A DNA stretch of 64,000 nt from NCBI GenBank assembly GCA_050952625.1, contig JBMNLH010000001.1, positions 864,001-928,000 on the forward strand, read 5' to 3'. The stretch is from Bacillota bacterium (GTDB lineage Bacteria; Bacillota; Ch66; Ch109). Below the pieces are notes generated by a model. It did no database searches, had not been told where the DNA came from, and saw only the letters and a program-made list of their open reading frames with translations. The position numbers and the translations under genes were made by a program. This document shows positions 3-25,080 of the stretch, piece by piece; position 1 is the stretch's first letter, and each line of letters begins with the position of its first letter.

Positions 3-3000
3 GAGATATTAGTTAAAGATAACCGAGGAGGAACGTCTAATAAGGAGATCGGGCGGGTACTAAAGTCAGAACAATCGGGGAAATCGGGGATAACAGACAA
101 GGTTTGGTTTGGGCGGGAGATTAAATCAGAGGCAGTGCCGATTAAACATTTAATTGAAGAAGAAAAGTCGATTACTGTTCAGGGCCGAATATTTGATTTA
201 TCAATTCGTGAATTAAGAAGTGGTCGGACCTTAGTGGTTTTTAATATTACAGATAATACCGATTCGATTACGGTCAAGATTTTTCTAGAAAGTAAGGACA
301 AAGCTCGAGTGCTGGAGTATTTACGGGAAGATGCCTGGATATTAGTCCGAGGATCGGCACAGGTTGATCGTTTTTCTCAGGAACTTACCCTGATGGCGCA
401 AGATATAAATGGCGCAAAGGCTCCAGAACGAAAAGATCTAGCCGAAGAAAAGCGAGTGGAACTACACTTGCACACGAAGATGAGTTCAATGGATGGACTG
501 GTCAATATTAAAGATTTAATGAAGCAACTCGCTAAATGGGGGCATTCGGCTGTGGCCATTACTGATCATGGAGTTGTTCAGGCTTTCCCCGATGCTCATG
601 AAGTGGCGGCGAAGTATGGGATTAAAGTGATTTTTGGAGTTGAGGGTTATCTTACTGAAGAAATAAAACCTAAAGCGGGGAAGAATAAAAATCGTTCGCG
701 TTCTTATCACATAATTATTCTGGCCAAGAATCAGACTGGGCTACAAAACTTATATCGTTTAGTTAGTTTATCGCACCTGGAGAATTTTTACCGGCATCCG
801 CGTCTAGCCAGGGAGAAAATTCAGCAGTATAGGGATGGATTGATCCTGGGCACCGCTTGTGAAGCTGGTGAATTAATTCAGGCATATTTAAGGGGAGAAC
901 CTCGGGCAATTCTTGAAGAGATAGCCTCATTTTATGATTTTATTGAGATTCAACCGACCGGCAATAATGAGTTTCTTATCCGAAATGGTCAGATACCAAG
1001 CTTAGACGGTCTGCAAGACATGAATCGCAGCTTATTGGCGATCGGCGAAAAATTAGGGAAACCAGTGGTGGCAACGGGTGACGTTCATTTTTTAAACCCG
1101 GAAGATGAGTGTTACCGAAGAATACTTCAGGCGGGAAAAGGCTTTGAAGATGCAGAACTACAGGCACCCCTTTATTTACGAACTACCGAAGAAATGCTGG
1201 AGGAGTTTAGTTACCTGGGACAAGAAAAAGCTTATCAGGTCGTGATCGAAAACCCACAATTTATTGCTGCTTCGATTGAAGAACTACAGCCAGTCCCCGA
1301 AGATCTGCACGCCCCAAAAATTGAAGGGGCAGAGGAACAGATTACTGAAATGACTTATCAGCGAGCCAAGGAACTATACGGCGATCCCTTGCCCTCACTG
1401 GTTCAGGCTAGAGTAGAAAAAGAGTTAAATTCAATTATTAGTAATGGCTTTGCTGTCTTATACTTAATTGCTCATAAATTGGTCCGTAAATCCAATGAAG
1501 ATGGTTACCTGGTTGGATCTCGGGGATCGGTCGGTTCTTCTCTGGTGGCTACCTTGACTGGGATTACCGAAGTGAATCCGTTGCCACCGCACTATCGGTG
1601 CGGGCATTGCCGATACAGTGAATTTATAGTAGACGGCACGGCCGGGTGCGGTGCGGACCTGCCGGATCGTCAATGTCCAAGGTGTAAGACTATGTTAACG
1701 AAAGATGGTCATGAGATTCCTTTTGAAACTTTTCTTGGTTTTAAGGGAGATAAGGTACCGGATATTGATCTTAATTTCTCCGGTGAGTATCAAAGTCGGG
1801 CCCATCGCTATGTTGAGGAATTGTTTGGCAAGGATCATGTTTATCGGGCTGGAACTATTGCCACAATCGCGGATCGGACTGCTTATGGTTTTGTAAAAAA
1901 ATACCTGGACGAACACCAGATGCGGTCCCGCGAGGCCGAAATAATGCGATTAGTCAAAGGATGTACTGGGGTGAAAAGAACTACCGGCCAGCACCCGGGA
2001 GGTTTGATGGTTGTTCCCACGGGTAATGATGTGCATCAGTTTACCCCGGTTCAGCGACCAGCTGACGATACGGAATCAGAAGTTATTACGACCCATTTCG
2101 ATTACGAGGCGATCAGTAGTCGATTAGTTAAACTAGATATCTTGGGTCATGATGATCCGACAGTAATCAGGATGCTTCAGGATTTAACCGGTATTGATCC
2201 ACGCGTTGTCAAATTAGATGAACCAAGAACGATGCAACTTTTTTCCGGAGTAGAATCTCTGGGGGTTACTGCGGAACAAATCAGGTCTACCGTAGGCACT
2301 TACGGCGTCCCGGAATTTGGAACAAGATTTGTTCGGCAGATGCTAGAGGACACCCGTCCGAAAACGTTTTCGGATCTAGTGCGGATCAGCGGTTTTTCTC
2401 ACGGCACAGATGTTTGGCTGAATAATGCCCAGGATTTGATAAAAAATGGTCGTGTTAAACTGGGGGAAGCCATTTCAACCCGGGATGATATTATGACCTA
2501 CTTAATTCAGCGGGGAATGGAACCTTCTTTGGCTTTTAAGATTATGGAGGATGTTCGAAAAGGTAAAGGAGTTAAACCTGATTTTGAGGAACAAATGAAG
2601 GCCAACGGAATTCCTGATTGGTACATTGACTCTTGCAAGAAAATAAAATACATGTTTCCTAAGGCCCACGCTGTCGCTTATGTAATGATGGCGTATCGAA
2701 TTGCCTATTTCAAAGTCTATTATCCCGAGGCTTTTTATGCTAGCTTCTATACGGTCCGGGCTGATGAATTTGACGCCCAGTTAATTGTTGGTGGCAGTCA
2801 AAAAGTCCGCGCCAAAATTGAGGAGTTGGACCAAAAAGGAAACGATGCTACGGCCAAGGAGAAAAACTTGTTGACAATACTTGAGGTCGCTCTGGAGATG
2901 TATGAAAGAGGAATCGAACTGCTCAAAGTAGACTTAGCCAAATCCGATGCCCAACGGTTTCTGATTACTCCCCAAGGGCTATTGCCGCCGTTGGTTGCTT

Positions 3001-19459: not shown

Positions 19460-20266
19460 ATGGGAGACAAAATAAGGGTAGTCGTGGCGGGTGCCTATGG
19501 CAAAATGGGTCGAGAAGTTGTCAAGGCGGTTTTACACGACAAAGCTTTAGAACTGGTTGGTGCGGTTGATGTTAAAGGTCGAGGAACTGATTTGGGTACT
19601 CTGGTAGGGGAAGCTCCGATTGGCCAGGAGATATCCGGAGAATTAGAAATTTTATTAAAACAGAACCGCCCTCATGTGCTTATTGATTTTACCAATCCTC
19701 AATCTGTATTGCGAAATATTCATACAGCTCTTGACAATCAAACATGCTCAGTGGTGGGAACTACCGGACTGACTGCTGAAGAATTACAAGAGATTGACCA
19801 TAAAGCCAAAGAGAAAGCTCTGGGCGTATTCGTCGCACCTAATTTTGCTTTAGGAGCTGTTCTAATGATGAAGTTTGCTCGGGAGACGGCTCGCTATTTC
19901 CCTCATGTTGAGATAATCGAATTACATCATGACCAAAAAGTAGATGCTCCATCCGGAACCTCTTTGCGGACAGTGGACCTTATCTCAGAAAAACGACCGG
20001 TTTTTCGTCAAGGGGCAATCAATGAATATGAAAAGGTAGCCGGGGCCCGAGGTGGAGAAATCAACGGAATTCGGGTACACAGTGTACGTCTCCCCGGTTT
20101 TATCGCCCATCAAGAAGTTATTTTTGGTGGTCTTGGTCAGATTCTTACCTTACGGCATGACTCAATTAATCGAGAATGTTTTATGCCAGGAGTACTGTTA
20201 GCTGTTCATAAGGTTGGACAATTACACGGTTTAGTGGTTGGCTTGGAAGAGTTGTTAGATGATTGA
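19460..20266 (+). CDS. dapB: 4-hydroxy-tetrahydrodipicolinate reductase
   Basis: GAYGKMG, VGTTG and ELHHDQKVDAPSGT motifs. Confidence 0.97.
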   Translation: MGDKIRVVVAGAYGKMGREVVKAVLHDKALELVGAVDVKGRGTDLGTLVGEAPIGQEISGELEILLKQNRPHVLIDFTNPQSVLRNIHTALDNQTCSVVGTTGLTAEELQEIDHKAKEKALGVFVAPNFALGAVLMMKFARETARYFPHVEIIELHHDQKVDAPSGTSLRTVDLISEKRPVFRQGAINEYEKVAGARGGEINGIRVHSVRLPGFIAHQEVIFGGLGQILTLRHDSINRECFMPGVLLAVHKVGQLHGLVVGLEELLDD

Positions 20267-20295
20267 TATTTAAGAAGGCTATTTGTGAATTGAGT

Positions 20296-20323
20296 CACCG
20301 TTTTGGTCAGATTGCCATATACT
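20296..20323 (+). promoter_or_regulatory. SigK-type promoter of dpaA
   Basis: CACC-N16-CATATACT matches the SigK consensus; spoVF is SigK-controlled in Bacillus. Confidence 0.7.
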
Positions 20324-20428
20324 GCTTATGAGAGTTGGTTAGCTAAGTGATAGCCAGGGTCAGTCGCAATGTGTTGTAACATTACATTTACTAGATTCAC
20401 ATGGCTTTAGTTAAGGGAGGCAACCGTT

Positions 20429-21346
20429 TTGAACCTAAAAGGGATTCAAGTAGCGGTTTTAGGTGGAGATGACCGCGAATTGATACTAATACCGGAATTG
20501 GTTAAAATGGGAGCTAGAGTAATGGTAGTCGGATTTCCTCAACGCCCTGAACTGGCCGGCGCGCAGCTAGTAGACACACTGGAGGAGGCTCTGATAGGAG
20601 CCCAAGCTGTAGTTATGCCGATGCCAGGGACTGATGATAAAGGAAATATTCGAGCTGTTTATTCGGAAAAGAAACTAGAGTTAACAGAAAAATTGGTAAG
20701 AAGGCTTCCGCCGCAGACAACAGTAATAATCGGGGTGGCCCGATCTTTTTTAAAAGAGTGGGCGGTTAAGTACCGTCTAAACTTAATAGAGATTGCAGAA
20801 ATGGACCATATCGCTATTTTAAACTCTATTCCGTCCGCCGAAGGGGCTATTCAGATTGCTATGGAAAATGTACCGATTACCATACACGGTAGTCAATCCT
20901 GGGTATTAGGGTTTGGCCGGGTAGGAAAGACATTGGCCCGAATGCTTCAAGGATTAGGAGCATTTACAACGGTTTGTGCTCGAAACCCAGCTGATTTGGC
21001 GCGGATCTGGGAAATGGGTTATCGGGGGATTACTTTTGATCAAATGTCGGAAAAAATCGAGAAAGCCGATATTATCTTTAATACTGTGCCAGCTATGGTA
21101 TTAAACAAGGAAGTGCTATTAAAGTGTAGCCCGGAAGTAGTAATTGTTGATTTGGCTTCGCAGCCTGGCGGAACTGACTTTCAGTGGGCAGATAACTTAG
21201 GAATTAAAGCGATTTTGGCCCCTGGTTTGCCGGGAAAAGTAGCTCCCCGAACAGCCGGTAAAATACTAGCCCAAGTAGTTCCGGATCTAATAATTGAGGG
21301 TGTTAGACAAAAATTAGAAAGGCATACGGTATCTGAAGCAACCTGA
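20429..21346 (+). CDS. dpaA: Dipicolinate synthase subunit A (SpoVFA)
   Basis: LGGDDR, NSIPSAEGAI, DLASQPGGTDF and APGLPGKVAP motifs. Confidence 0.97.
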   Translation: MNLKGIQVAVLGGDDRELILIPELVKMGARVMVVGFPQRPELAGAQLVDTLEEALIGAQAVVMPMPGTDDKGNIRAVYSEKKLELTEKLVRRLPPQTTVIIGVARSFLKEWAVKYRLNLIEIAEMDHIAILNSIPSAEGAIQIAMENVPITIHGSQSWVLGFGRVGKTLARMLQGLGAFTTVCARNPADLARIWEMGYRGITFDQMSEKIEKADIIFNTVPAMVLNKEVLLKCSPEVVIVDLASQPGGTDFQWADNLGIKAILAPGLPGKVAPRTAGKILAQVVPDLIIEGVRQKLERHTVSEAT

Positions 21347-21433
21347 TGTTTTCCAAGATTTGTTTTTCAGAGGTAAAAAAGTTCGTTATCTTGAATCCGT
21401 TTTTTTCGACACTCAACTGGGTGTCTTTTTTTG

Positions 21434-21544
21434 TCTGAATGTAAAGACTCCTACTTCTCTAAGGTGCGGTTTACCTTGTTTAAACTTCGGGTGGGTAAAG
21501 TCTCCAGCTGAGGCCTCGATGTTCAGCGAACTGAAGAGGTCACT
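21434..21544 (+). repeat. Dispersed ~110-bp repeat, copy 2
   Basis: TCTGAATGTAAAGACTCCTACTTCTCTAAGGTGCGG...GGCCTCGATGTTCAGCGAACTGAAGAGGTCACT. Confidence 0.85.
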
Positions 21545-21681
21545 ACTTGTGCGCTCAGGACTTGTTTTCACAATAATGTAATGTATATATTGTGAAATAT
21601 TGTTCCTGCCAATGCAGGATTATTCATAATTGAAGTCAAAATGTATTATAGTAAATTGGCCATTGAAAAGGGGGTAAGCCG

Positions 21682-22530
21682 ATGCTTATTCAGATGACTA
21701 CCGGGGCTAAATCAGTGGCACCAATGTCTTGCACTGTTTTTTTGTCACACATTGTGGTTTGCCTGGAAGGAGATATCGGCAAGGAAGTCTGGTTTCAGAT
21801 AAAAGACCGAGGTCCTTGTCGATTTGGCCGAATTGATTACTGGGTTAACGGCGAAAGACAGTTTGTGGAAGGTCTATGCACTAAAGATGAACAGCCTTAC
21901 CTGCCGGTCAGTATAGAGGAGTGTGATTTGTTTATTTTAGTTGGCCAGACTGAGCAAATTCTAAAATATCGCGAGATAACCAGGGGTTCAAGGGTGATGA
22001 ATCTGATAATAACTCTAGACGAAGGGGATGATTATGTTCACCTTAAAGAAACATGGGGTTCAGAAAAAACTGTTTTTACGGGGATACAAGCCGATCCTCA
22101 ATCTAAAGAAGCGATTGATTGCTTAAGCTTGGTCTTAGACTCGTTGGTAGGGTTATTTAACTATTATGAATATGGATTGGTTCGATTTAGTTTGTATGAT
22201 CTCCGGCATATCTGGTCCGATGGTTCTGATTTAGGGATTGAGTACCATCAACTAAGGCTTAGTCAAATGGCCGGCGAAAGTAAGACGCCCCAACTAATAA
22301 GCCATTCAAGTTCGAGGTTAACCAAAACAGAGCCCGCTCAAGATCTTGATAGTCTTTTAATCGTTGTTCGCGGGCCTGAAGATCTTTCCCCGGAGCTCAT
22401 GGAGGTCGTGGTGCATACAACCCGGGCTGAAAGAGAAGGAATCGAAGGAATACATTGGTATGCAATAGGCTGTTCGACAAAATCCGAATGGGTTGAAGGA
22501 ATTGTTTTCTTATGCCATAAAAAGGGTTAA
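21682..22530 (+). CDS. Hypothetical protein, probable degenerate FtsZ/tubulin fold without GTP-binding motifs
   Basis: 282-aa ORF with SD AAGGGGGT; collinear resemblance to FtsZ by eye (see findings). The confidence value covers the fold call; the CDS itself is more secure. Confidence 0.6.
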   Translation: MLIQMTTGAKSVAPMSCTVFLSHIVVCLEGDIGKEVWFQIKDRGPCRFGRIDYWVNGERQFVEGLCTKDEQPYLPVSIEECDLFILVGQTEQILKYREITRGSRVMNLIITLDEGDDYVHLKETWGSEKTVFTGIQADPQSKEAIDCLSLVLDSLVGLFNYYEYGLVRFSLYDLRHIWSDGSDLGIEYHQLRLSQMAGESKTPQLISHSSSRLTKTEPAQDLDSLLIVVRGPEDLSPELMEVVVHTTRAEREGIEGIHWYAIGCSTKSEWVEGIVFLCHKKG

Positions 22531-22635
22531 GGTTTTTTGTGTTTTGCTGTAGGCCTATTGTTATACGTAAGAAATTAGAATATAATGAATAAAGGAAATA
22601 ATATAATAAGATGCCAACCGAAAGGGGTGGTGGCC

Positions 22636-22890
22636 ATGATTAGAACCTGTAGTACGTGTGCTAGATCAGAGAGTCACCGCTGGTGTTGTATTCGGGAAAG
22701 GTTGAGGCTGGCTGGAAATGATTTATCCAGAGTTTTTTGGGAGAGAATGGAAGAAGTAGAGGCAGGTTTTTTAAGAGACCATGAAGTAGGGGTAAAATTT
22801 GGTGCGGACCTGTTGATTGATTTTCAAGTATATACATGTCCGAGGTGGATTGAACAAGAACAGAAGGAACTGAGTGCTAGTTTAGGTTAG
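22636..22890 (+). CDS. Small Cys-rich hypothetical protein
   Basis: SD AGGGGTGG before ATG 22636; CxxC-x8-CC...C pattern. Confidence 0.65.
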   Translation: MIRTCSTCARSESHRWCCIRERLRLAGNDLSRVFWERMEEVEAGFLRDHEVGVKFGADLLIDFQVYTCPRWIEQEQKELSASLG

Positions 22891-23008
22891 CGTTTTTTTG
22901 TTTTTTACGCAAATAGTGATGAGTGGCAATTGGTGGTTAGAAAAAATAATTCCGGTTAATTCACAAAGTGTCTTCATTCTTGATTGTAGACCTCTAATAG
23001 ATGATCTT

Positions 23009-23110
23009 TATCTGTGTGCAAGGGCCCCTGCTCTTTATGAGCGGGGGTTTAGCTTTTTAATGCCTTAGGCTAATTAGCGTCTTCATCTGAAGCTTTGATG
23101 TTCGGCCAAA
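23009..23110 (+). repeat. Dispersed ~110-bp repeat, copy 3 (degenerate)
   Basis: TATCTGTGTGCAAGGGCCCCTGCTCTTTATGAGCGGGGG...GTCTTCATCTGAAGCTTTGATGTTCGGC is collinear with the other copies. Confidence 0.65.
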
Positions 23111-23176
23111 TTTTATTTTTATCAACAATAGATCATCTGTCAAACAAGGACTGTATTTTGACTGAAGTCGTTTCAG

Positions 23177-23204
23177 CACCTCTCAGGGGTTTTTTTCATA
23201 TAGT
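23177..23204 (+). promoter_or_regulatory. SigK-type promoter of dpaB
   Basis: CACC-N16-CATATAGT. Confidence 0.7.
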
Positions 23205-23253
23205 ACTAGTAGATAACAGGGGAGAACAAACGACCCGAAGAGAGGTGTATTAG

Positions 23254-23871
23254 ATGCGACTTGAGGGCAAGAGAATTGGGTTCGTTGTAACCGGTTCCCA
23301 CTGCACCATAGAAGAGGTACTACCAGAAATCACTCGTCTTATTGAAGAGGGTGCTGAGGTTTATCCGATAGTATCTGATTCAGTGAGTACTACCGATACC
23401 CGTTTTGGCACTGCGGAATACTGGAAAGAATCATTAGAGAAACGCACGGGACATCGGGTTATTAGTTCAATCGTCGAGGCTGAGCCAATTGGCACGCAGA
23501 AACGGTATGATCTAGTCATCATTGCCCCTTGCACCGGCAATACACTGGCTAAATTAGCCAACGGCATAACCGATACGCCAGCCTTGATGGCCGCCAAAGC
23601 TCATCTCAGGAATTTACGCCCGATAGTCCTGGCGATATCAACTAACGATGGTCTGGGGATCAATGCCAAAAATCTCGGCCTAATAATGAATATGAAAAAC
23701 ATTTATCTGGTACCTTTTGGACAGGATAATCCTTGGGAAAAGGCGAATTCTTTAGTAGCCCACCTTGACTTATTAATGGATACAGTAATCGCTGCCTTAG
23801 AGGGCAGGCAACTTCAGCCGGTTCTACTAAGTCCCAGAGCCGCTCGATCTTGTGTTGCTTCAATTGATTAA
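23254..23871 (+). CDS. dpaB: Dipicolinate synthase subunit B (SpoVFB)
   Basis: TGSHCT, TDTRFG, APCTGNTLAK and FGQDNP motifs. Confidence 0.97.
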   Translation: MRLEGKRIGFVVTGSHCTIEEVLPEITRLIEEGAEVYPIVSDSVSTTDTRFGTAEYWKESLEKRTGHRVISSIVEAEPIGTQKRYDLVIIAPCTGNTLAKLANGITDTPALMAAKAHLRNLRPIVLAISTNDGLGINAKNLGLIMNMKNIYLVPFGQDNPWEKANSLVAHLDLLMDTVIAALEGRQLQPVLLSPRAARSCVASID

Positions 23872-24066
23872 ATTTATTTTGGTGTTACTAATTAATTCAA
23901 ATCATCGTATCCAGATAATGAAGCCGAACCGGTAAAGGAAAATAATAACCCGGCTAAACCCTCAAAAGTTTGTTCTTTAAATTTCTTTTCTCATGGTAGT
24001 TGCATTGTGCTAAAATGGTGAAAAATAATCAGGCTAGTCGGGCGGCCTGGACTGCAGGAGGTACTG

Positions 24067-25080
24067 ATGGTGAAGGAGTTAAAAGTAGCAGTAGTTGGAG
24101 CAACTGGAGCTGTTGGGCAAGAGATGTTAAGGGGTTTAGAAGAACGTAATTTTCCGATTACTAAATTGAAAGCATTGGCTGCTCCTGAAGAAGCAGGGAC
24201 CCTGGTTCGTTTTCGGGGTGAGGATCACGTGGTTGAAGCGGCAGCCCCAGAATCATTTGAGGGTTGCCAGATCGCTTTATTTGCCGCTGGAGAGGTTGTG
24301 CGGTGGCTCGGACCAGAGGCAGTTAAACGAGGAGCGGTAGTGGTCGATAACAGCAATACCTTTCGCATGGATCCCACGGTACCGTTGATCGTCCCGGAGG
24401 TAAATCCGGAAGATGTTCGTAATCACCAGGGAATTATCGCTAATCCTAATTGTTCAACGATTATTATGGTGGTCGCCCTTAAACCTTTACATGATGCAGC
24501 TCGTATCAAACGGGTAGTCGTATCTACCTATCAGGCGGTATCCGGGGCCGGGGTAGCCGGGTTAAAAGAACTGGATGTTCAGACCAGGCAGTTGTTGGCT
24601 GAGGAAAAAATAAAACCTGAGGTTTTTCAACACCAGATCGGTTTTAATTTAATACCCCATATTGATGTTTTTGAGGAAAACGGGTATACCAAGGAAGAGT
24701 TAAAGATGCTTTATGAAACCCGTAAAATCATGCATGAACCAGAAATGAAAGTAAGTGCCACGGCTGTACGAGTACCCGTTTTCCGCAGTCACTCAGAGTC
24801 AATTAATATTGAAACCGAGAAAAAACTGACCGCAGCGGAAGCTCGTCAGATTTTAAGCCGTGCCCCTGGGATTATTGTGCAGGATGATCCGGGTCAAAAT
24901 AAATACCCAATGCCGGTTTTTACCGCCCATACAGATGAGGTCTTTGTCGGGCGGATTCGGGAAGACTTGTCAATCGAGAATGGACTGAACTTTTGGGTAG
25001 CAGCAGACCAAATCCGTAAAGGAGCAGCTATTAACACCATTCAAATTGCGGAAATTTTAGTTAGAGAGAATCTGGTCTAA
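24067..25080 (+). CDS. asd: Aspartate-semialdehyde dehydrogenase
   Basis: GATGAVG, ANPNCST and STYQAVSGAG motifs. Confidence 0.98.
   Translation: MVKELKVAVVGATGAVGQEMLRGLEERNFPITKLKALAAPEEAGTLVRFRGEDHVVEAAAPESFEGCQIALFAAGEVVRWLGPEAVKRGAVVVDNSNTFRMDPTVPLIVPEVNPEDVRNHQGIIANPNCSTIIMVVALKPLHDAARIKRVVVSTYQAVSGAGVAGLKELDVQTRQLLAEEKIKPEVFQHQIGFNLIPHIDVFEENGYTKEELKMLYETRKIMHEPEMKVSATAVRVPVFRSHSESINIETEKKLTAAEARQILSRAPGIIVQDDPGQNKYPMPVFTAHTDEVFVGRIREDLSIENGLNFWVAADQIRKGAAINTIQIAEILVRENLV

Follow-up and report, generated by a model that had tools for sequence, protein, structure and literature searches.

Eukaryotes commonly build regulators from degenerate relatives of cytoskeletal NTPases, and the regulators of FtsZ so far known from bacteria are, to our knowledge, either small proteins with no relation to it or ParA-type ATPases. 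MciZ, a short peptide, has ∼40 residues. In the part of the source available to us, MipZ, MinC and MciZ are said to bind FtsZ in the H10/T7 region, inhibitors to act at its polymerization faces, and MciZ, which binds that region with a KD of ∼100 nM, to block division in terminally differentiated cells (PMC9897490). Departures from canonical FtsZ have also been reported, here again as given in excerpts: the FtsZ of N. maritimus (Nmar_1262) has neither the conserved GTP-binding motif nor a T7 loop, formed no polymers in a heterologous host (yeast) and is not a division ring (PMC3684127); FtsZl1 lacks some structural elements (T6-H7) and keeps the GTP-binding loop (PMC2875224); and a truncated FtsZ paralog, FtsZ1, inhibits division if continuously expressed (PMC13732431). 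Here we describe a gene for a 282-residue protein lying between the dipicolinate genes dpaA and dpaB of a Bacillota bacterium (GTDB lineage Bacteria; Bacillota; Ch66; Ch109). The DNA analyzed, which we call the window, is a stretch of 64,000 nucleotides (assembly GCA_050952625.1, contig JBMNLH010000001.1, positions 864,001 to 928,000 of the forward strand), and coordinates count from its first letter. We refer to the protein as X and to the small Cys/His-rich protein encoded downstream of it as Y. A first-pass annotation, made from the sequence alone, had read X as a catalytically dead FtsZ paralog. The predicted structure of X is that of FtsZ, the GTP-binding signatures are missing, and the sequence belongs to no described family.

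Predicted structure of X

Given an alignment of 10 family sequences, AlphaFold2 returned a model of X with a mean predicted local distance difference test (pLDDT) score of 80.7 and a predicted template modeling (pTM) score of 0.83, in which 224 of the 282 residues have a pLDDT of at least 70; its weak parts are residues 1-19 and 165-167 (pLDDT <50 in both). The model comprises a Rossmann-like N-domain, a core helix H7 and an FtsZ_C-type domain, and its elements follow one another in the order S1, H1, S2, S3, H3, S4, short H4, S5, H5, S6, H7, T7 loop, H8, S7, S8, H10, S9, S10. It departs from the order of FtsZ in that no H6 is predicted and that a strand (205-212) stands in a variable region at the place of H9. 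The element names were assigned by order and by the ranges of structural alignments made with VIA-align, and the residue equivalences between X and FtsZ given below are those of a merged MAFFT alignment, not of a coordinate superposition. The gene and the parts of the protein to which we refer are as follows.

21682..22530, + strand: coding sequence of X, the predicted FtsZ-fold protein of 282 amino acids, stop codon included (list of open reading frames (ORFs), homologs, model, fold matches)
21748..22086, + strand: predicted N-terminal Rossmann-like domain, residues 23-135, S1-S6, with shortened loops at the T1-T6 places (model, motif counts, element conservation)
22129..22221, + strand: most conserved segment, residues 150-180, comprising the end of H7, the T7 place with an insertion, and H8 (aligned to FtsZ GLINLDFADVKTIM)
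22228..22518, + strand: predicted C-terminal FtsZ_C-like domain, residues 183-279, comprising S7, the variable strand at the H9 place, S8, H10, S9 and S10 (model, alignment)

Comparison of the model with the PDB by Foldseek returned FtsZ throughout among the matches listed (to rank 49), with a best E-value of 2.3e-11 and TMq of 0.62-0.65. Pairwise structural alignment with VIA-align gave the following scores.

M. jannaschii FtsZ (2vap): Z 19.5, root-mean-square deviation 3.6 Å, 244 residues, model 13..282 against 28..342
B. subtilis FtsZ (2vam): Z 19.0, 231 residues, model 22..280 against 12..315
CetZ: Z 15.3
BtubA: Z 15.2
Tubulin: Z 14.8

Identity between X and FtsZ in the structural alignments was 9-17%, and the aligned ranges extend to FtsZ residues 312-316. 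A search of 48,161 representative chains, carried out independently of Foldseek, placed members of the tubulin/FtsZ superfamily at every one of ranks 1 to 16 (FtsZ, CetZ, BtubA, tubulins, Asgard and Odin tubulins, gamma-tubulin, PhuZ and TubZ; Z 18.1 to 10.7). Below rank 16 we found ∼125-residue matches to single Rossmann-like domains with Z<10, and only 22 of all chains reached Z≥8. As a match to the model, FtsZ outscored CetZ, BtubA, tubulin, PhuZ and TubZ. The two-domain FtsZ/tubulin fold put forward by the first-pass annotation is accordingly what AlphaFold2 predicts, with FtsZ as the closest structure by Foldseek, VIA-align and the wide search alike.

The same annotation had listed the glycine loops, most of the T7 motif and the C-terminal tail as missing from X, and a count of motifs in the family and in 29 FtsZ sequences bears out the first two. 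In FtsZ the T1 and T3 loops secure the phosphates of the nucleotide, and the T7 synergy loop activates hydrolysis of GTP in the subunit that follows.

T1, G.GG.G.[NG]: X family 0 of 10, FtsZ 29 of 29
T3, G[AL]GAG: X family 0 of 10, FtsZ 28 of 29
T4, GGG[TS]G[TS]G, the tubulin signature: X family 0 of 10, FtsZ 29 of 29
Loose G.G.G: X family 0 of 10, FtsZ 29 of 29
T7, N.D..D: X family 0 of 10, FtsZ 29 of 29

As to the tail, X ends at residue 282, three residues past strand S10, with neither a disordered linker nor a C-terminal peptide for binding partners of the FtsA, SepF or ZapA type, whereas the genome's own FtsZ has the linker and a terminal ...DIPAFLRRR. Judged by the predicted model, X very probably is an FtsZ fold without a GTP pocket.

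What the family has kept lies elsewhere in the fold. In the merged MAFFT alignment X G165-L-V-R-F-S-L-Y-D173-L-R-H-I-W stands opposite FtsZ G205-L-I-N-L-D-F-A-D213-V-K-T-I-M, so that of the polar residues of T7 the last Asp alone is retained (X D173 for FtsZ D213) and is invariant in the family, the N and the first D being replaced. Between H7 and the T7 loop X carries a five-residue insertion, N-Y-Y-E-Y, of which Y-Y-E is kept across the family, and the family consensus of the residue 150-180 segment is LDSLvgLfnYYEnGLvRFsLyDLRhIW. Residues D153, S154, L155, L158, L166, F169, D173, L174, W178, L226, R230, G231, Y260 and F276 are invariant in the 10-sequence alignment, and T111, L152, Y162, E163, R175, L184, V228 and W259 nearly so; they cluster in H7-T7-H8, in the RG at the end of S8 (R230-G231) and in the WY of S9 (W259-Y260). 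Expressed as the share of rows with the commonest residue, conservation was 0.83 in H8, 0.71 in T7, 0.67 in S9, 0.65 in S8, 0.62 in S4 and 0.60 in H7, and at the loop places of T2/T3 and T6 it was 0.27 and 0.30; two of the ten rows are C-terminal fragments, which limits these values to at most 0.8 in the N-terminal half.

In FtsZ, the T7 (bottom) polymerization face is formed, and the interdomain cleft lined, by the end of H7, by T7 and H8, and by the ends of S8 and S9. The cleft is an established drug pocket of FtsZ that binds benzamides such as PC190723, and the equivalent site of tubulin binds taxanes. A review bears the title 'Targeting the Achilles Heel of FtsZ: The Interdomain Cleft' (PMC8456036). 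The invariant columns of X fall on the corresponding elements H7, T7, S8, S9 and S10, and one could read X as a small-molecule binder or sensor in which D153, S154, E163, D173, R175 and R230, with Y162, W259 and Y260, line an H7/T7/beta-sheet cleft holding a metabolite. However, X has no ligand, enzyme motif or family match of any kind, and the genomic contexts of the members differ and indicate no common metabolite; we consider such a role quite improbable.

Ahead of S1 lies a further conserved peptide, S.gP.sCgVFLs (21712-21747, residues 11-22), in a stretch that is disordered in the model (pLDDT <50 for residues 1-19). No counterpart of it is conserved in FtsZ, and it could be a docking peptide.

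Sequence searches

Sequence comparison gave a different result from structure. X had no match in Pfam or NCBIfam at E≤1. The first-pass annotation had named the lack of a profile match to FtsZ_C as a result that would refute its reading, and such a lack is what we observed, in that none of the 10 family members matched PF12327 (FtsZ_C) or PF00091 (Tubulin) in Pfam at E≤5, where the only hits were three stray matches of single members to DUF359, AmiR_N and ZP1_ZP4_Ig-like. The profile of the X family found no FtsZ among all PDB sequences at E≤10, returning only cellulose synthase subunit C (E 0.92), and TIGR00065 identified the true ftsZ alone in this genome, not X. When X was compared with the genome's own FtsZ by BLASTP the best E-value was 1.5, and the high-scoring segment pair corresponding to the T7-to-S8 block proposed by eye (X 165-236 with FtsZ 205-271) showed 24% identity with an E-value of 7. 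Alignment of the 10-sequence X family with 30 FtsZ sequences by hhalign, in global and local mode, gave a probability of 0.14%.

The collinear matches to FtsZ that had been drawn by eye are thus not above chance as sequence matches, by BLASTP as by hhalign, but the order of elements that they implied has stood. MAFFT, applied to the 10 X members and 12 FtsZ sequences, aligned S1/H1/S2, H3/S4, H7/T7/H8, S8, H10, S9 and S10 in that same order, as did the structural alignment. That X has no described family, as had also been suggested, agrees with our searches of Pfam, NCBIfam, PHROGs and PADLOC, the last two of which gave no family for X or for two of its distant members. A language-model feature search listed, at rank 8 (score 0.90), a cluster of 238-amino-acid Bacillota proteins of which 14% carry PF12327 (FtsZ_C), which we treat as a lead only, as well as several unnamed clusters of 233-267 amino acids (score 0.91-0.93). 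Measured by the hidden Markov models (HMMs) and motifs that define the FtsZ family, X falls outside it, having none of the four defining sequence features examined; its predicted fold places it in the FtsZ/tubulin superfamily, nearest to the FtsZ branch. The relationship between X and FtsZ is therefore one seen in predicted structure and nowhere else.

This raises the question whether X in truth has another fold and owes its likeness to FtsZ to the shallowness of the alignment used in the prediction. Only 10 sequences make up that alignment, the link to FtsZ finds no support from any sequence or profile method, and the five models of X range in pLDDT from 72.0 to 80.7. Against an artefact stand the pTM of the best model and its 224 well-predicted residues, a match at Z 19.5 that takes in both domains in their proper order, and the filling of ranks 1-16 by one superfamily in a search where Z≥8 was so rare. 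The cluster with FtsZ_C members, lead though it is, points the same way, and the first-pass annotation arrived at the same collinear alignment from sequence alone. An artefact of this kind seems to us very unlikely.

Distribution, selection and expression

X has few relatives. In a collection of 5.8 billion proteins we found five proteins at E≤0.01, namely X itself and relatives at 88, 51, 47 and 45% identity, and a profile search of the same set with the X family returned six proteins, none of them new. An exhaustive phmmer search of 1.84 billion representatives gave nine hits at E≤0.001, seven at E≤1e-10 and four at E≤1e-30, with relatives reaching down to 29-35% identity. Scans for the family identified three loci on genome contigs and three on metagenome contigs. 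The family is confined to uncultivated Bacillota of anaerobic digesters, represented by metagenome-assembled genomes. An uninterrupted X frame was present in 4 of 41 genomes of relatives, in 4 of the 7 genomes making up the GTDB class and in 4 of 401 genomes sampled across the phylum; all four carriers belong to one GTDB family (three of its five other genomes) and to three genera. The search found no X in a sister genus, represented by two genomes that are 94% and 90% complete, or in the sister family, represented by one.

Canonical ftsZ was present in all 31 genomes searched, so that X coexists with it. One genome of the phylum, G024, had two additional sub-threshold TIGR00065 matches besides its true ftsZ, of 105.8 bits (C23:18393-19352) and 56.5 bits (C17:48198-48863). 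Going by their sequences, these would be divergent FtsZ paralogs of another kind, still detectable by an FtsZ HMM.

Members of the X family are 23-92% identical to each other, and no complete copy has an interrupted or shortened frame. By the Nei-Gojobori method the ratio of non-synonymous to synonymous substitution (dN/dS) was 0.34 between G000 and G001 (pS 0.106, pN 0.037) and 0.29 between G003 and a metagenome relative (L015), the other four pairs being saturated at synonymous sites. With dN/dS at about 0.3, X appears to be under purifying selection. Contigs from four of four RNA libraries, which come from three studies, extend over parts of X at ≥95% likeness, and those of two of these libraries also cover Y; such contigs may derive from DNA in the libraries and are a weak sign of transcription. 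In libraries X16 and X18 the contigs cover parts of X and Y and none of dpaA or dpaB within 20300-24100, but the RNA runs were found with the X/Y stretch itself, as contigs, so that this says nothing about differential expression.

The loss of all catalytic features, together with a patchy distribution in which a sister genus lacks the gene, would also suit a decaying relic of an ftsZ duplication that has no present function. A relic, however, would not be expected to keep its frame open and full-length in copies down to 23% identity, and the strongly conserved 30-residue core, the dN/dS value, the conserved ribosome-binding site (below) and the RNA-library contigs covering X likewise speak against decay, which we regard as extremely unlikely. 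X is a real, selected gene of very narrow distribution.

The dipicolinate locus

That X is encoded inside the dipicolinate locus was recognized in the first-pass annotation and is confirmed here, with dpaA and dpaB identified on either side by TIGR02853 and TIGR02852. The features immediately around X are listed below.

20429..21346, + strand: dpaA (spoVFA), upstream neighbor (TIGR02853, 359.8 bits against a cut-off of 319.65, E 9.4e-108; PF16924)
21668..21674, + strand: ribosome-binding site of X, AAGGGGG, 7 nt before the ATG (read from the sequence)
22636..22890, + strand: Y, Cys/His-rich protein of 84 amino acids (ORF 22585..22890; likely start ATG 22636 after GAAAGGGG, not the first ATG at 22585)
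23254..23871, + strand: dpaB (spoVFB), downstream neighbor (TIGR02852, 282.1 bits against a cut-off of 229, E 1.4e-84; PF02441)

X starts with ATG, a choice supported by the N-terminus MLI..., which is also present in homologs from other genera; G001 and G004 have GGAGG/GAGG at the place of the ribosome-binding site. The gene order is peptidase M16-like, PRC-barrel protein, dapB, dpaA, X, Y, dpaB, asd, aspartokinase and dapA, the outer names having been read off the translations without a family search, and apart from X and Y this is the usual arrangement in Bacillota. X and Y are two ORFs of the dpaA-dpaB gap without any family. A 73-amino-acid ORF with a TTG start (21360-21581, + strand) in the spacer between dpaA and X runs across the terminator-like hairpin that follows dpaA, matches no family and is probably not a gene.

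Candidate transcription signals are distributed through the locus as follows.

21408..21433, + strand: terminator-like hairpin with T-run after dpaA, 7 pairs, then TTTTTTTGTC, separating dpaA from X
21623..21652, + strand: sigma-70-like promoter candidate before X, TTCATA-18-TATAGT (consensus scan, 9 of 12 matches)
22558..22586, + strand: sigma-70-like promoter candidate before Y, TTGTTA-17-TATAAT (10 of 12 matches; TAGAATATAATGAATA block shared with G004)
23022..23050, + strand: terminator-like hairpin after Y, 12 pairs
23178-23190: short terminator-like hairpin directly before the ribosome-binding site of dpaB

The promoter sites are candidates only, since such sites were not enriched over shuffled sequence (10 observed where 7.3 ± 2.5 were expected). 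Upstream of X the region is kept within the genus and not in G004, while the -10 block before Y is kept between two genera. RNA contigs of libraries X15 and X17 start at 21664 and 21669, close to the candidate promoter of X, a weak hint. Inspection by eye for boxes of the sigma-E, K, F and G types before X revealed nothing convincing, and the signals as a whole neither point to a sporulation sigma factor nor argue against one. The non-coding spacer between Y and dpaB (22891-23253, 363 bp) contains two terminator-like hairpins and gave no Rfam match. An Rfam scan of 20000-24500 at E≤1 did return a sub-threshold archaeal snoRNA match inside the X coding sequence (21.3 bits against a gathering threshold of 45), which we took as chance. 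With dpaB separated from dpaA by ∼1.9 kb and at least two terminator-like sites, it needs its own promoter or read-through.

Y has invariant residues C6, C9, H15, C18, C19 and C69, a CxxC...H..CC...C pattern that makes it possibly metal-binding. It had no family in Pfam or NCBIfam and no usable Atlas match; the 5.8-billion-protein set held three relatives, and PHROGs gave one weak match of unknown function (E 0.0068). Its AlphaFold2 model, from four sequences, was unusable (pLDDT 47.4, pTM 0.29). Besides the copy listed above we located Y at L018:1501-1755, L017:1501-1737 and L016:1501-1755 (- strand).

Comparison of the neighborhood across genomes showed that the X-Y pair directly after dpaA is common to two genera. 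In G004, which belongs to the other genus (47-48% identity), the order is scpA, scpB, DUF2953, dpaA, X, Y, gerA, gerC, gerB, dpaB. In G003, where X lies elsewhere, and in G006, G002 and G005, which lack X, dpaA and dpaB are adjacent with nothing between them. X stands beside a divergently oriented adenine deaminase gene in G003 (L012:4040-5845, - strand) and in a metagenome relative (L015:2-1582, - strand), which may be its ancestral position or mere shared synteny, and in another metagenome relative it precedes isocitrate dehydrogenase. On the simplest reading, X would have moved together with Y into the dpaA-dpaB spacer in an ancestor of the two genera, as a derived insertion. The gap of G004 (L011:7446-11709) also contains, after X and Y, a complete germinant receptor operon of the gerA/gerC/gerB type, so that in this lineage the spacer seems to accumulate inserted genes. 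As dpaA scored above its cut-off in seven of seven genomes of the class, these organisms are presumably spore formers.

These neighborhoods bear on whether X might have a structural role that needs no nucleotide and involves no contact with FtsZ, as a static scaffold of spore formation or germination that self-associates or has another partner, such as Y. The X-Y order kept after dpaA at 47-48% identity, the germinant receptor genes in the same gap of G004 and the presence of dpaA throughout the class would all suit a protein of the spore, and there is a precedent in the FtsZ of N. maritimus, which according to the available excerpt neither polymerizes nor acts in division (PMC3684127). The pairing, however, is not obligate, because Y, found in two of five family genomes searched, was not found in G003, which has X, and because a second Y copy in G004 lies away from X, next to an IS3-type transposase. 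Moreover, in its distant members the X gene lies away from sporulation genes, the promoter candidates are sigma-70-like, and neighborhood in two related genera is weak evidence. We think a scaffold of this kind rather unlikely, while giving it some weight.

A possible role for X

The explanation that we tentatively favor, with FtsZ as the partner of X, treats X as a 'pseudo-FtsZ', that is, as an FtsZ body, on the evidence of the model, in which the T1-T6 loops are short, the glycine signatures gone and two of the three T7 catalytic residues lost. Given the predicted fold and the motif counts, such a protein should be unable to bind or hydrolyze GTP in the manner of FtsZ, and because it has no C-terminal linker and tail it should be unable to dock FtsA or SepF through a tail. 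It would instead work without nucleotide, through protein-protein contacts of its conserved H7-T7-H8/S8/S9 region. The most probable partner for this region would be the nucleotide-bearing face of FtsZ, the most economical choice because that face normally meets a T7 face. Bound to a filament end or to a monomer, X would present a dead upper face that accepts no further subunit, and the outcome would be a one-sided cap or a sequesterer that tunes assembly of the Z-ring. X could in this way cap or modulate Z-filaments, as the first-pass annotation had supposed. Its further supposition, that X acts in sporulation, finds a hint solely in the lineage-specific position of the gene. A complex prediction for X with the core of the genome's own FtsZ (residues 10-320, 29-row alignment) and GTP scored 0.00 in both of two runs made without controls, which counts neither for binding nor against it.

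Several observations weigh against this explanation. No sequence method ties X to FtsZ, and homology to FtsZ hangs on one predicted model from a 10-sequence alignment, in which residues 165-167 at the place of T7 have a pLDDT <50 and the equivalences with FtsZ residues are those of the MAFFT merge and element order. Hydrophobic residues (L, F, W, V) account for many of the invariant positions, and conservation in H7, T7 and S8-S10 may reflect the domain core rather than a binding face. X adjoins neither ftsZ nor any division gene, ftsZ being ∼214 kb away on the same contig (C1) in the region 671435-672361, and it is linked to dpa in only two of the three genera that have it. The promoter candidates of X and Y look sigma-70-like and not sporulation-specific. 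Finally, X is dispensable for division and sporulation in close kin, because genomes of the sister genus and sister family that lack X still carry dpaA and ftsZ.

A more specific form of the proposal would have the T7/H8 face of X plug the GTP-bearing face of FtsZ and so cap the filament end opposite to that blocked by MciZ, MinC and MipZ, X having been recruited to the dpaA-dpaB spacer so that division stops or is remodeled as the spore matures. We hold this to be unlikely; if true, this would be the first bacterium found to regulate FtsZ with a degenerate copy of FtsZ.

The proposal of a 'pseudo-FtsZ' has a practical side as well. A family with the predicted body of FtsZ, no GTP pocket and mainly the T7 face conserved would be a natural 'half-interface' reagent, one that could reveal how a single polymerization face is recognized and which end of the filament counts in control of the Z-ring. 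Proteins like X escape Pfam, NCBIfam and profile-profile comparison and surface only through predicted structure, so many more of them may exist; our Atlas feature search lists clusters of unnamed bacterial proteins of 230-270 amino acids with X-like features.

Comparison with known systems

Among titles and abstract openings of the literature we found no description of an FtsZ-fold protein without GTP motifs in Bacillota or in a dpa locus. The X family would add a further case to the degenerate FtsZ paralogs already known, a little-studied group of dead proteins.

The closest structural comparison is with FtsZ itself (TIGR00065; PF00091 and PF12327; 2vap, 2vam). X shares with it the predicted two-domain fold and order of elements over 231-244 residues (Z 19.0-19.5), H7-T7-H8 is the best conserved part of the X family as it is of FtsZ outside the GTP loops, and D173, the T7 aspartate that X keeps opposite FtsZ D213, does not vary in the family. 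Unlike FtsZ, X lacks the T1, T3 and T4 glycine motifs, the N and first D of T7, the linker, the tail and a match to any FtsZ or tubulin HMM; its loops are shortened, H6 is not predicted, a strand takes the place of H9, and identity is 9-17%.

A functional analogy, and no more than that, is possible with MciZ, which the accessible part of its description presents as a developmental protein blocking a polymerization face of FtsZ (PMC9897490). MciZ has neither an FtsZ fold nor homology to X, and X, were it to bind through its conserved T7 face, would sit on the opposite face of FtsZ, the one that bears the nucleotide. The FtsZ1 and FtsZ3 proteins of Hyphomicrobiales (A. tumefaciens) and FtsZl1/FtsZl2 resemble X in being extra superfamily members beside an essential FtsZ; in contrast to X they were found, as far as the excerpts tell, through the FtsZ GTPase domain and keep GTP-binding elements (PMC13732431, PMC2875224). 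FtsZl1 is moreover described there as linked to vWA, OmpA-like and GTPase genes (PMC2875224), none of which is a neighbor of X.

The nearest known kind to X is the degenerate FtsZ of Thaumarchaeota, which, to go by the excerpt, is likewise a dead FtsZ kept by a lineage (PMC3684127). The N. maritimus protein is archaeal and, on the same excerpt, still aligns to FtsZ by sequence (PMC3684127), whereas the X family, likened to it here by description, is bacterial, occurs beside a canonical FtsZ, lies beyond sequence detection and has much shorter loops.

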